From: Candidatus Latescibacterota bacterium
Lineage (GTDB): Bacteria; Latescibacterota; UBA2968; UBA8231
NCBI GenBank assembly: GCA_965197905.1
Contig: CBDAOB010000005.1
Coordinates: forward strand, 2,048,001 to 2,112,000
Length of the DNA stretch: 64,000 bases
Direction: 5' to 3'
Shown piece by piece: positions 11,022-41,834 of this stretch. Below the pieces are notes generated by a model. It was not told the origin of the DNA and did not search any database. It was given only the letters and a program-made list of their open reading frames with translations. How positions within the stretch are numbered: position 1 is the first letter of the stretch; every line of letters starts with the position of its first letter. A program made the translations under genes and the position numbers.

Positions 11022-12944
11022 CTATATCAACGCCTTCGAGGAGATCTTTTCCGCCACCAATCCAACGGCATCCGTAACCGACATGGGATCGAGATTCTCG
11101 CCGGTTCGCTGCCTAATCGTCACTTCCCCGCTCTCGGCTTCGCGGTCACCGAGTACGAGCATATAGGGCACCTTGTGAACCTGGGCTTGGCGAATTCGAT
11201 AGTTGAGGGTGGCGTCGCCGTGCAGCTCGGATCGGACGCCAGCATCCAGAAGCTTTCTGTGCACCGAGTCGCCATACTCGCCATGGCGTTCGGCGATGGG
11301 CAACACCACCGCCTGTACGGGCGCCAGCCAGACCGGGAACGCCCCGGCGAAATGCTCAATCAGAAAACCTATGGTGCGCTCGTGGGTACCTAGCAGAGCG
11401 CGATGGATACAGATCGGGTGTTCCTCCTCCCCGGCCGAGTTGGTGTAAACCAACCCCAGCCTTGCCGGAACGGCGAAGTCCACCTGGTTTGTCGAGAAGG
11501 AGAACTCGCGTCCAATGGCGCTCCAGACCTCCACATCTATCTTCGGGCCGTAGAATGCCGCCTCACCTGGAGCCTCCGTGTATTCTATGCCGCCGTTTCC
11601 CATGGCCTGGCGAACCATCTCTTCGGTCTTTGTCCAGAGTTCGGGTTCGTCCACGTACTTTTTCCCCAGCTCTTTGGGAGCATGGGTGCTAAAACGCATT
11701 ACGTACTTCTCGATGCCGAACAACTCGAAGTAATCCAGGTACAACCTGCACACCGCTAGGAATTCCTCCTCGAATTGATCCAGCGTGCAGTAGATATGCG
11801 CGTCGTTCATCTGCATCGAGCGCACCCGCATGAGCCCGAACAATTCGCCGGATTTCTCGTATCTGTAGCAGGTACCGTACTCCGACAGTCGCAGCGGGAG
11901 ATCGCGATATGAGCGCGGCACCGACCCGTAGATCTTGTGATGATGGGGACAGTTCATCGGCTTCAGATAGTACTTGACCCCCTCCAGCTCCATCGGCGGG
12001 TACATCGACTCCGCATAATACGGCAGGTGCCCCGTGCGCTCGTAGATGACATCCTTGCAGATGTGAGGTGTCCGCACCTGTTTGTAGCCGGCCCTGCGCT
12101 CCACCGCCTTGGCCAGATTCTCGAGCTCTTCGATCAGCACCGTACCTTTGGGTTGCCAGAGCGGTAAACCAGGTCCGATCTCCTCGTCGAAAAGAAACAG
12201 TTCCTGTTCCTGACCCAGTCGCCGGTGGTCCCGTTTCTTGGCCTCCTCGAGCATGTCCAGGTGGTGGTCCAGCGCTTCCCTGCTGGAAAAAGCGGTACCG
12301 TAGATACGTTGCAGCATCTTGTTCTTCTCGTCGCCCCTCCAATAGGCTCCGGCGACGCTCAGCAGCTTGAAATAACGTGCTTGACCCGTTCCCAAGATGT
12401 GCGGCCCGCGGCACAGATCGCAAAAATCACCATCCCGATAGAACGACAGGCGCTCCTCCTCTCCGATGCCCTCGAGAATCTCTAGCTTGTACGGCTCGTC
12501 CTTTAGTAGCTCTCGTGCATCTGCGGCCGGCACCTCGAAACGCTCGAACCGGTGGTTCTGTTTTACCACTCTCTTCATCTCCTTCTCGATGCTCTGCAGA
12601 TCATCCGGGGTGAACGGATTCTCGGCGTCGAAATCGTAGTAAAACCCGTCCTCGATCGCCGGGCCGATCGCCAGCTTCGTTCCCGGAAACAGTCTGAGCA
12701 CGGCCTGCGCCATGACGTGAGAAAGACTGTGCCGGAAAATCCATGGGGCATCCTCCGCCTTCCATTCGATCAACTCCACGTCGGCATCTGCTGCAAGCTC
12801 GGTGTGAAAATCGATCCGCTCGCCCTCCAATCGCGCCCCTATGCAGGTCTTTAGCAGGGTCTTGTCGGTCTCCACAAGAACCTCCTTGAGCGAAGCGCCC
12901 GCTTCAGAGTAGAGAGTTTCTCCATCGGGTTTTCTAATATTCAT
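11022..12944 (-). CDS. thrS: threonine--tRNA ligase
   Basis: HSLSHVMAQA, DLCRGPH, GAYWRGDE, KPMNCPHH, AAFYGPKID and IHRA motifs. SD AGGAG before ATG 12944. Confidence 0.97.
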   Translation of the reverse strand: MNIRKPDGETLYSEAGASLKEVLVETDKTLLKTCIGARLEGERIDFHTELAADADVELIEWKAEDAPWIFRHSLSHVMAQAVLRLFPGTKLAIGPAIEDGFYYDFDAENPFTPDDLQSIEKEMKRVVKQNHRFERFEVPAADARELLKDEPYKLEILEGIGEEERLSFYRDGDFCDLCRGPHILGTGQARYFKLLSVAGAYWRGDEKNKMLQRIYGTAFSSREALDHHLDMLEEAKKRDHRRLGQEQELFLFDEEIGPGLPLWQPKGTVLIEELENLAKAVERRAGYKQVRTPHICKDVIYERTGHLPYYAESMYPPMELEGVKYYLKPMNCPHHHKIYGSVPRSYRDLPLRLSEYGTCYRYEKSGELFGLMRVRSMQMNDAHIYCTLDQFEEEFLAVCRLYLDYFELFGIEKYVMRFSTHAPKELGKKYVDEPELWTKTEEMVRQAMGNGGIEYTEAPGEAAFYGPKIDVEVWSAIGREFSFSTNQVDFAVPARLGLVYTNSAGEEEHPICIHRALLGTHERTIGFLIEHFAGAFPVWLAPVQAVVLPIAERHGEYGDSVHRKLLDAGVRSELHGDATLNYRIRQAQVHKVPYMLVLGDREAESGEVTIRQRTGENLDPMSVTDAVGLVAEKISSKALI

Positions 12945-12970
12945 TGTTCGACTCCTGTGCCTCAAACATC

Positions 12971-13001
12971 AAAAACGCCCCCTACCGGGGAGGCAGCGGG
13001 C
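12971..13001 (-). terminator. intrinsic terminator (attenuator) in the thrS 5' leader
   Basis: Minus strand GCCC-G-CTGCC tcccc GGTAG-G-GGGC followed by GTTTTT, about 27 nt before the thrS ATG. Confidence 0.75.
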
Positions 13002-13026
13002 TTCGGAAGATCGATTTGCTGCTGAT

Positions 13027-13143
13027 CTAAAGCAGCGAGACCCGCACGGAAACATCGGTTGACTCCTCCGTAGTGAGATGTGCGGAGGGTGCCAAAGCGG
13101 TGCGCGGGGTGCCGGGTTCGATTGCCAACATTTCTCTGCTCAT
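13027..13143 (-). CDS. putative thrS leader peptide (38 aa, 5 Thr including Thr-Thr)
   Basis: MSREMLAIEPGTPRTALAPSAHLTTEESTDVSVRVSLL*, lying between the promoter and the terminator. Alternative start at 13131. Confidence 0.55.
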   Translation of the reverse strand: MSREMLAIEPGTPRTALAPSAHLTTEESTDVSVRVSLL

Positions 13144-13171
13144 CGTCGCGATTACCGTTTCAACTAGCACG

Positions 13172-13201
13172 AAATTAAGCGGCGGCTTGCGACCATGTCA
13201 A
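13172..13201 (-). promoter_or_regulatory. sigma70-type promoter for the thrS leader
   Basis: TTGACA-N18-TAATTT. Confidence 0.65.
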
Positions 13202-13245: not shown

Positions 13246-14418
13246 CTAGTGCGGTGCGGCCTGCCGAACCGCTTCGGCGATGCGTGGGGCCACCGATTTG
13301 TCGAGGGGGGCAGGCAGGATCTTCTCCGGCTCCGGGGTCTCCACCGTATCTGCAAGCGCGTGGGCAGCGGCGAACTTCATCGCCGGATCTATGGTCGCCG
13401 CTTCAGCATCGAGCGCTCCGCGAAAGATCCCCGGAAAAGCGAGGACATTGTTTACCTGGTTGGGAAAATCACTGCGACCCGTCCCCACAATGGCGGCTCC
13501 TCCACGGCGCGCGCGGTCGGGCATGATCTCGGGCTCCGGATTCGCCATGGCCAGAATCACCGAGTCTGGGGCCATGCTGCGGACATCGTCTTCGTCCAGA
13601 AGGTTTCCCTTGCTGACCCCGATAAAGACGTCGGCTCCCTCCAGCACCTCTCGTAAAGTGCCAGTTCGATCGGCATGGTTGGTATAGGAGAGAAGCGCCT
13701 TCTTCTCGGTCGAGAGTCCATCGCGGCCGCGATGCACCGCGCCCTTGGAGTCGCAGATGACCACATCCTCCACCGATTTGCATACCGACGGATCGTACCC
13801 CACACATCTCAGCATGCGGGCGATCGCGGTGCCTGCGGCCCCGGCGCCGCTGATCACGACTCTCATTTTGGTTATCTCGCGATCCAAAACCCGGCAGGCG
13901 TTGATCAGGGCGGCCAGCAGCACGATGGCAGTACCATGCTGGTCGTCGTGAAAGACCGGAATACCCAGATCCTGCAGCTGATCTTCTACCTGAAAGCAAC
14001 GTGGAGCGGCAATGTCCTCCAGATTTATGCCTCCAAACACAGGAGCAATGCGGCGCACCGTGTCGACGATTTCATCGGGGTCCTGAGTGTCCAGACAGAT
14101 GGGCCAGGCATCGATGCCGGCGTATTCCTTGAAGAGCAGGGCTTTGCCCTCCATCACAGGGATGGAGGCCAGAGGACCTATGTTTCCCAACCCTAGAACC
14201 GCCGAGCCATCGCTCACGACGGCTACCGAATTTCGTTTGATGGTGAGGTGTTGCGCCTGGCTCGGATCGGCCGCGATCAACTCGCAAGGCCGGGCAACGC
14301 CCGGCGTATAGGCGATAGAGAGATCGTCCTGGGTTTCGATCGGAATCTTGTTGACGATCCCGATCTTACCGCGCAATTGTTTGTGAATAATAGCTGAGCG
14401 CTCGTAGAAGTCGGTCAT
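13246..14418 (-). CDS. NAD(P)-dependent malic enzyme (short bacterial type)
   Basis: YTPGVA, VMEGKALLFK, INLEDIAAP, FHDDQHGTA, GAGAAG and TGRSDFPNQVNN motifs. Confidence 0.95.
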   Translation of the reverse strand: MTDFYERSAIIHKQLRGKIGIVNKIPIETQDDLSIAYTPGVARPCELIAADPSQAQHLTIKRNSVAVVSDGSAVLGLGNIGPLASIPVMEGKALLFKEYAGIDAWPICLDTQDPDEIVDTVRRIAPVFGGINLEDIAAPRCFQVEDQLQDLGIPVFHDDQHGTAIVLLAALINACRVLDREITKMRVVISGAGAAGTAIARMLRCVGYDPSVCKSVEDVVICDSKGAVHRGRDGLSTEKKALLSYTNHADRTGTLREVLEGADVFIGVSKGNLLDEDDVRSMAPDSVILAMANPEPEIMPDRARRGGAAIVGTGRSDFPNQVNNVLAFPGIFRGALDAEAATIDPAMKFAAAHALADTVETPEPEKILPAPLDKSVAPRIAEAVRQAAPH

Positions 14419-41281: not shown

Positions 41282-41834
41282 CGTGGCCTTGGGACGCGAT
41301 ATCCGCCTGGATCTGGTCGGCGCATTCAGCGGGGCTATAGCGCCCGCTGTCGATGACCTGGTGGTAGATAGACAGGTCGGTCAGATCGATCTGGTATATG
41401 CTTGCGTAGCGTGTCGCTTCGGACTGTTCGCGAGCAAGCATCTCGCGGATGGCTAGATCCAACTCCTTTTCCTCCCGATCGGCGACCCTACGGGCCCGCA
41501 CCTCCCGCGGCGCATCCACCCACACCCGATGCGCGGCCAGCTGATGCCGCAGCGTCATCCACCCTGTAATCCGGCCCTCCAATATGACCCGGTTGGATTC
41601 CCTCGCGCCGTCAATCATGCGCTTGTCCAGCTCCCGGTCGATCTCGTCGTTCGATTCCGCCCGCCGACCTAATTCCTGTAGCGAGATTCCCATTTGCTCC
41701 GCCATCTGCCGGAACACATCTCCCGTATTCATGAGATCCCATTGCAAGCGCGCTCCGAGTTCACGACATAGAGTGGTGGTACCGCTTCCCGGAAGTCCGC
41801 TAATGGTCATAATCTGGAGATCGCCTGCCATCAT
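41271..41834 (-). CDS. cmk: cytidylate kinase, archaeal-type
   Basis: ITISGLPGSGTTT-type P-loop (here MTISG), GDVFRQMA, IDRELD, EGRITGW and RARRVADRE...RYASIY.ID motifs. Confidence 0.82.
   Translation of the reverse strand: MMAGDLQIMTISGLPGSGTTTLCRELGARLQWDLMNTGDVFRQMAEQMGISLQELGRRAESNDEIDRELDKRMIDGARESNRVILEGRITGWMTLRHQLAAHRVWVDAPREVRARRVADREEKELDLAIREMLAREQSEATRYASIYQIDLTDLSIYHQVIDSGRYSPAECADQIQADIASQGHDAT

Follow-up and report, generated by a model that had tools for sequence, protein, structure and literature searches.

A probable ribosome-stalling attenuator upstream of thrS in the window's genome and its conserved counterparts in a family of Candidatus Latescibacterota

The leader element upstream of thrS is real and is conserved across a family of Candidatus Latescibacterota, as seen in its anatomy, in the order and spacing of its parts, in its conservation at 64 of 75 thrS loci, in the in-frame enrichment of threonine codons and in the covariation of its terminator. 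We propose that the copy in the window (the whole 64,000-nucleotide stretch of DNA that was analysed) is a transcription attenuator that acts on thrS by ribosome stalling and responds to scarce charged tRNA-Thr, and we put the probability of this at roughly 0.85; that the element of the family at large is a threonine attenuator we hold with greater confidence still. The window by itself is near chance and it is the family comparison that shows more than chance. A first-pass annotation of the window had arrived at the same interpretation, which is supported here with corrections: the observation is partly confirmed, in that the parts lie as placed and one helix (1:2) was misassigned, the covariation expected of the antiterminator is not significant, and there is a prior candidate in Streptomyces lividans.

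Results

The thrS leader of the window

The gene at 11022..12944 on the minus strand is thrS, encoding a threonine--tRNA ligase of 640 amino acids, an identity proposed in the first-pass annotation and borne out by a TIGR00418 match of 643.7 bits (cut-off 383.65). Its Shine–Dalgarno (SD) sequence, AGGAG, lies at 12956-12952, and upstream of the leader is a malic-enzyme-like gene that ends at 13246. All leader features given below are on the minus strand. The promoter has a −35 hexamer, TTGACA (13196..13201), recognized from its sequence and, after a spacer of 18 nt, a −10 hexamer, TAATTT (13172..13177), recognized from its sequence and from the spacing in the family; both had been placed correctly at the outset. 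Transcription is predicted to start near 13166. The promoter fell below the threshold of a generic promoter scan of the window (0 found).

The leader ORF (13027..13143) begins with ATG, encodes 38 amino acids and, as first reported, contains five threonine codons (12, 15, 24, 25 and 29). Codons 24 and 25 form the Thr-Thr pair ACT-ACG (13069..13074), 23 nt ahead of segment 2, which is the predicted main stall site and at which ribosomes would be expected to pause. Segment 2, the 5' strand of the antiterminator (13036..13045), has a GCGGG core at positions −16 to −12 relative to the stop codon. Segment 3 (12992..13005) serves both as the 3' strand of the antiterminator and as the 5' arm of the terminator, and the helix claimed between 13045-13036 and 13005-12996 does have nine of ten pairs, with one G-U pair and one C-A mismatch. 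We predict that the inner arm of the antiterminator junction is a small hairpin around the leader stop codon (13018..13036), which is present in the minimum free energy structures of L001 and L002 and, in a shorter form, of L003.

The intrinsic terminator, a hairpin followed by U5 (12971..13001), was matched by a terminator scan and lies ahead of the thrS SD as claimed; it is conserved in the family and covaries. In the window its hairpin (13001-12977) is worth about −19 kcal/mol and is irregular, with a G.G mismatch in the stem and one G ahead of the U5 tract (12975-12971). The leader is also found in contigs of two public DNA runs with 0 and 1 differences, so that an assembly error is an unlikely source of the odd terminator bases, although the assembly may itself have been built from these runs.

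One part of the first-pass scheme had to be replaced. A helix 1:2 between 13085-13077 and 13056-13042 can be drawn at −8.6 but has a pair probability of 0.00, and neither congener has an intact 5' arm for it; it was therefore rejected. A competing helix joins 13108-13102 to 13047-13041 (−10.5; pair probability 0.95–0.99 in the window), and 13102..13108 is accordingly our predicted segment 1, the anti-antiterminator. This helix is identical in L002 and absent in L003, and is thus present in two of the three members of the genus.

A second uORF (uORF2, 12969..13055), confirmed as threonine-free, is led by a strong SD, GGAGGAG at 13069-13063 (−9.5 kcal/mol). This SD comes directly after the Thr-Thr codons, and a ribosome stalled on them would cover it.

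Taken alone, the window is statistically unremarkable. Its threonine content of 5 in 37 residues (p=0.04) justifies the caveat, raised from the start, that threonine density is modest. Folding of the whole leader is uninformative (z = −0.27), and the energy with which the terminator arm is captured does not stand out from shuffles (p = 0.19). The locus ranked 28th of 37 in a genome-wide screen for uORFs with terminators, a screen that is insensitive, as it missed the tyrS leader described below.

Conservation of the leader across the family

A thrS match was found in 75 of the 76 family genomes, and the upstream regions of all 75 loci were compared. The same, sequence-conserved terminator is present at 70 of them (68 found by script and two added by hand) and absent at five. 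A −35-like box, TTGAC(A/T) or TTGCAC, stands upstream of every one of the 70 terminator-bearing loci, and a −10-like box follows at a spacer of 17–18 in 64 of the 68 found by script. Leaders longer than 100 nt occur at 66 of the 75 loci, nine being without a leader, and in 64 of these 66 the longest ATG ORF, a choice blind to codon content, reaches at least 14 amino acids. The leader peptides mostly have 23–58 residues, and in 56 of the 64 the stop codon lies 23–37 nt ahead of the terminator arm.

At least three threonine codons are present in 61 of the 64 leaders, so that the main check suggested by the first-pass annotation, whether relatives keep the uORF and its Thr codons, is passed strongly. 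Thr-Thr pairs occur in 53 of the leaders and runs of at least four in 27, from five genera, the longest run having 12; the number of threonines per leader ranges from 0 to 14. Over 16 genera threonine makes up about 14% of leader codons in frame, as against 2.7–2.8% off frame and 5.1–5.2% in the proteome. With one leader per genus the counts are about 85/622 in frame and 36/1275 off frame, and the worst binomial p against the proteome rate over 200 draws was 7e-12, a value to be read with the kinship of the genera in mind, as they are not independent. The rate exceeds both the background and the off-frame rates in 15 of the 16 genera. Threonine is the most enriched leader residue (2.7× background over the 16 genera); Ser (2.0×), Pro (1.9×) and Ala (1.5×) are enriched more weakly and Ile is not enriched (0.64×). 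The threonine runs mix ACT, ACC and ACG, and since neighbouring codons are identical in only 25 of 174 cases they are not a simple repeat. Their commonest codon is ACT, which is otherwise rare (10.6% of genomic Thr codons).

Leader-less and threonine-poor forms are scattered over a thrS tree of 46 fragments, consistent with repeated loss. At four loci (L014, L115, L116 and L121) the leader has been deleted and the terminator hairpin retained 32–36 nt past the −35 box. Three of them (L115, L116 and L121) have an interruption in the U-tract, and L014 has an intact one together with a short duplication. Five others (L111, L015, L008, L126 and L152) have the terminator with a leader ORF that is broken, missing or threonine-poor, through either decay or assembly error. 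The ThrRS match splits near residue 318–324 in G008, G010, G013, G014, G015, G016, G023 and G024, which points to an insertion of about 30 amino acids in several genera.

Among the 80 named matches listed, the closest thrS proteins (71–74%) belong to Ca. Latescibacterota, and two of these closest matches, L038 and L039, carry the family's leader or terminator. With these two set apart, no Thr-rich uORF with a terminator was found at thrS outside the family, among 15 loci of the same class and 78 of other lineages; the thrS start estimate is rough for many of these loci, where the match begins late in the protein. In other families of the class (L016–L019 and L022–L030) thrS follows a promoter and a leader of about 125 nt with a hairpin and U-tract, and a possible antiterminator can be seen by eye; no Thr-rich ATG ORF, conserved frame or Rfam match was found there. 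These leaders are possibly a different, undescribed attenuator. A stretch in the same-class loci resembles window positions 13078-13065 at 11 of 14 nt, and the next genes at L018 are presumably infC and rpmI.

Terminator, antiterminator and modelled switching

Covariation was assessed on an alignment of 23 of the 64 leaders, with an outcome that differed between two of the three helices that the first-pass annotation had proposed for this check. For the terminator, 97% of cells are paired, there are 15 double changes and none of 500 shuffles scored as high; its loops vary across the family. For the antiterminator (helix 2:3) the signal was not significant, with 88% of cells paired, seven double-change cells and 39–62 of 500 column shuffles scoring as high.

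The antiterminator is conserved in position. Its strand lies at the 3' end of the leader ORF or straddles the stop codon, and in 36 of the 64 leaders the sequence that best complements the arm of the terminator without gaps falls between −26 and +12 relative to the stop (15.4 expected, for an interval chosen after inspection); most g13 leaders have an equally good complement of the arm further upstream. Fifteen leaders from five genera share a register of exactly −21, and 25 g13 leaders one of −4. The window's GCGGG (−16 to −12) takes the position that GGTGG has in g5, g8, g11, g15 and g18; compared with those genera, antiterminator pairing in the genus of the window is shifted in register by one base.

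In the proposed mechanism, which follows the classical attenuation model for coupled translation and stalling (PMC1183508), a ribosome would translate the leader close behind RNA polymerase. Were it to stall at the threonine codons, segment 2 would be left free to capture the 5' arm of the terminator, giving read-through into thrS; were it to reach the stop codon, segment 2 would be covered and the terminator could form, ending the transcript near 12971. Low levels of charged tRNA-Thr would in this way raise thrS transcription. The single RNA run listed, with a share of 0.05, matched the leader with 0 records, a result that weighs neither for nor against this mechanism.

Switching was modelled by masking the RNA under the ribosome and confining the folding to the stretch from the ribosome to the polymerase. 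In the window the terminator arm is captured at 0.67–0.68 with the ribosome at Thr24, Thr25 or Thr29 and at 0.01 with the ribosome at the stop codon, and the E. coli thrL control (L171) gave 0.86–1.00 and 0.00 at the stop. A switch in the same direction was modelled in 59 of the 64 leaders, a count to be read with the bias of this test to a positive result, as more free upstream sequence favours pairing; when arm capture was compared with shuffles, p was at most 0.05 in only 9 of 28 tested leaders. Duplex energies compared with dinucleotide shuffles were mostly weak. A ribosome stalled at one threonine codon of L003 would leave segment 2 unavailable (0.24). An earlier form of the model that permitted pairing across the ribosome gave little contrast in the window (0.69 vs 0.69) and was replaced by this downstream-window model. 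At equilibrium the terminator is the favoured fold for almost all ribosome positions; E. coli thrL behaves alike, so we do not count this against the model.

Leader starts and alternative readings

A further helix (the AUG helix) is predicted to join the region of the leader start codon to a strand some 20 codons further on. RNAalifold analysis of 20 SD-led leaders, chosen after the pairing had been seen (L004–L006, L007, L010, L012, L112, L114, L117, L119, L123, L124, L153, L159–L161, L163, L164, L166 and L169), gave 90.6% paired, 12 double changes and a score above 500 of 500 shuffles. The helix may close behind the first ribosome and block re-initiation. Most g13 leaders and two of g18 are likely to be leaderless, as no more than 2 nt separate their ATG from the predicted start site.

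The genus of the window is represented by three sequences, L001 and its congeners L002 and L003, and stays at three, as a search of metagenome contigs for the exact terminator pattern gave 0 matches. An alternative specific to this genus, to which we assign a low but real likelihood, is that the threonine attenuator of the family has decayed or been rewired there, leaving a leaky constitutive terminator or one set by uORF2, from which a ribosome would pass through segment 2 and on through the terminator. Each leader of the genus has only 4–7 threonines, the AUG helix of other genera was not found, the window's terminator is imperfect and decayed leader copies are known elsewhere in the family. 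The SD of the leader ORF is weak in the three members (−3.0, −3.0 and +2.4 kcal/mol, the window's being −3.0) and that of uORF2 strong (−9.5, −9.5 and −8.0), with an ATG, GTG or TTG start in one register common to all three. Past this start, however, the uORF2 frames diverge, and it is the leader ORF that has been kept: it is open, its stop position is maintained in both congeners (with Thr at 4/38 and 7/34) at 25–26 nt ahead of the terminator arm in all three, and segment 2 is retained. The ACT-ACG site is kept in L002 and replaced by spaced Thr codons in L003, and threonine is the top-enriched residue in the genus (15% vs 3.6% off frame). The SDs of the trp and tyr leaders in this genome are just as weak (−2.7 and −2.2), so we treat the weak thrS leader SD as a caveat and not as a refutation. 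We therefore retain the attenuator reading for the window, which is likely to be a threonine-poor member of the family that needs a deeper threonine shortage than its poly-Thr relatives.

It is very improbable that stalling acts mainly through translation initiation, mRNA stability or a general stalling peptide (S-A-P-S-T) and not through threonine-specific termination. The enrichment of Ser, Pro and Ala and the four loci that retain the hairpin after loss of the leader would fit such a scheme; but the S-A codons fall on the 3' strand of the covarying AUG helix, so that the conserved S-A-P-S-T-like motif is explained at the RNA level, the hairpin is followed by a U-tract and the thrS SD lies outside it.

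Slighter still is the chance that the hairpin simply ends an upstream transcript, or is bound by a protein or a tRNA (as a T-box or an E. coli-type ThrRS operator would be), with an incidental uORF: the window on its own would allow this, and the stretch from the malic-enzyme-like gene to the promoter was found to contain no U-tract terminator, but promoter, uORF and terminator stay with thrS while the sequence further upstream differs among genera, in-frame poly-Thr runs of mixed codons strongly disfavour an incidental uORF, there is no T-box match in the leader or genome, and the terminator loops are variable, as by eye are those near the thrS SD, with only about 26 nt from the U-tract to the AUG.

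Leaders on other genes of the window's genome

Nine Pfam searches gave 19 synthetase-family matches in the genome of the window, and their upstream regions were inspected. Upstream of the tyrS gene (G000:C5 about 295240-295070, minus strand; L183 and L201, with relatives L202–L221) come a promoter and a uORF that contains Tyr-Tyr-Tyr and has a G-run ahead of its stop codon, and then a C-rich terminator with U9. This terminator is present at 15 of 19 family loci and at 0 of 11 loci outside the family. A fixed rule found the leader ORF at 11 family loci, with 38/203 Tyr in frame vs 2/406 off frame and a G-run near the stop in all 11, and a looser ORF rule added two further Tyr-rich leader ORFs. 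On contig C4 (G000:C4 1908807-1908950, plus strand; L185) a leader with two Trp codons and a terminator precedes a 717-amino-acid gene that, from its N-terminus, we take to be trpE(G). That tyrS and trpE of the same genome have leaders with cognate codons and terminators favours the attenuator reading of the thrS leader.

A candidate serS leader (G000:C5 about 1170570-1170690, plus strand; L184), with two Ser codons and a weak hairpin with a U-tract, was rejected as it was not found in 13 relatives. Near 41478 on the minus strand of G000:C1 a hairpin with U7 ends about 20 nt before a presumably pyrG-like gene, and is either the terminator of the upstream gene or an attenuator.

Discussion

The control of thrS is a textbook case of one gene governed in differing ways: in E. 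coli the protein binds a translational operator in an autoregulatory circuit, and in Firmicutes the gene is under T-box control. Ribosome-stalling attenuation in Latescibacterota, a phylum without a cultured model, is a well-supported third way, and it is accompanied in the same family by a parallel attenuator on tyrS. The T-box (on thrS and tyrS of Firmicutes) and the E. coli thrS operator act on the same genes and respond to a signal of tRNA charging or supply; the sensor predicted here differs, being a ribosome on a uORF. The T-box model RF00230 was not found in the window's genome, which is 91% complete, in a search whose control was positive in 5 of 14 known genomes.

We lean somewhat towards the view that this family, in which the window's genome shows no detectable T-box, independently placed thrS and tyrS, both classic T-box targets, under ribosome-stalling attenuators, the thrS leaders having an AUG-helix gate for one ribosome in many genera, leaderless starts in others and threonine runs of 1–12. 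If so, the tyrS element would be a tyrosine-codon attenuator without a match in the literature searched, the leaders would form a natural dose series of sensors, and transcription and translation would be tightly coupled in an uncultured phylum. The roughly 60 natural variants (0–14 Thr, SD-led or leaderless, intact or deleted) could show how codon number sets sensitivity.

Of the known systems, E. coli thrL (RF00506) is alike in having a Thr-rich uORF, segment 2 at the 3' end of the ORF, an intrinsic terminator and the same behaviour in the mask model. Its antiterminator core, GCGGG/CCCGC, is identical to that of the window's genus, probably through convergence on a common terminator sequence. 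It differs in controlling thrABC and in its 21-residue peptide rich in both Thr and Ile, whereas the Latescibacterota leaders precede thrS, mostly encode 23–58 amino acids, show no Ile enrichment and are not RF00506. Neither the whole window nor the leader (to E=10) nor seven related loci gave an Rfam match, in line with the absence of T-box and Thr_leader matches in the leader when this suggested check was run, and Thr_leader RF00506 was over its cut-off in 0 of 76 family genomes, with sub-cut-off matches only. The abstract of Lopatovskaya et al. 2010 is said to list thrS among genes with predicted attenuators.

The first-pass annotation knew of no attenuator of this type on thrS in this lineage, and none was found for Latescibacterota; a candidate thrS leader has, however, been published for Streptomyces lividans, and the present one therefore adds to a known mechanism. 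There thrL, upstream of thrS, has 18 amino acids with two Thr and, according to its authors, no U-rich terminator (PMC8079986). It shares with the present family a Thr-codon leader directly before thrS and a leaderless start, as in most g13 and some g18 leaders. Set against that one genome, the family described here lies in another phylum and has a covarying terminator, a positioned antiterminator and up to 14 threonines.

Leader-peptide attenuation of synthetase genes is itself familiar. By its annotation, pheM-pheST of E. coli is such a case. A cysS leader, uORFC-8-2, has been described (PMC8632094), and leader-peptide control is known or predicted for hisS paralogues in Bacillus, as attenuators (PMC2965389), and for trpS, leuS and alaS in Streptomyces (PMC1262725; PMC8079986). 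All of them share a cognate-codon uORF and a terminator that sense the product of the synthetase, and they differ from the present leaders in amino acid, lineage and RNA sequence; an AUG-sequestering helix and a paired tyrS attenuator were not met in the available parts of the literature on other synthetase-gene leaders. In full-text literature, with subscription journals, databases and supplements outside the scope, we found no attenuation in Latescibacterota and no Tyr leader on tyrS. The mechanism is classical and attenuators of synthetase genes were already known.

Downstream of thrS in the window lie an ORF of 227 amino acids and then proS (10999-8464 region). The ORF starts 22 nt past thrS and has no NCBIfam match; proS begins 76 nt beyond it and no promoter pattern was found in front of proS. 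It may be that proS is under the same threonine attenuator as thrS.
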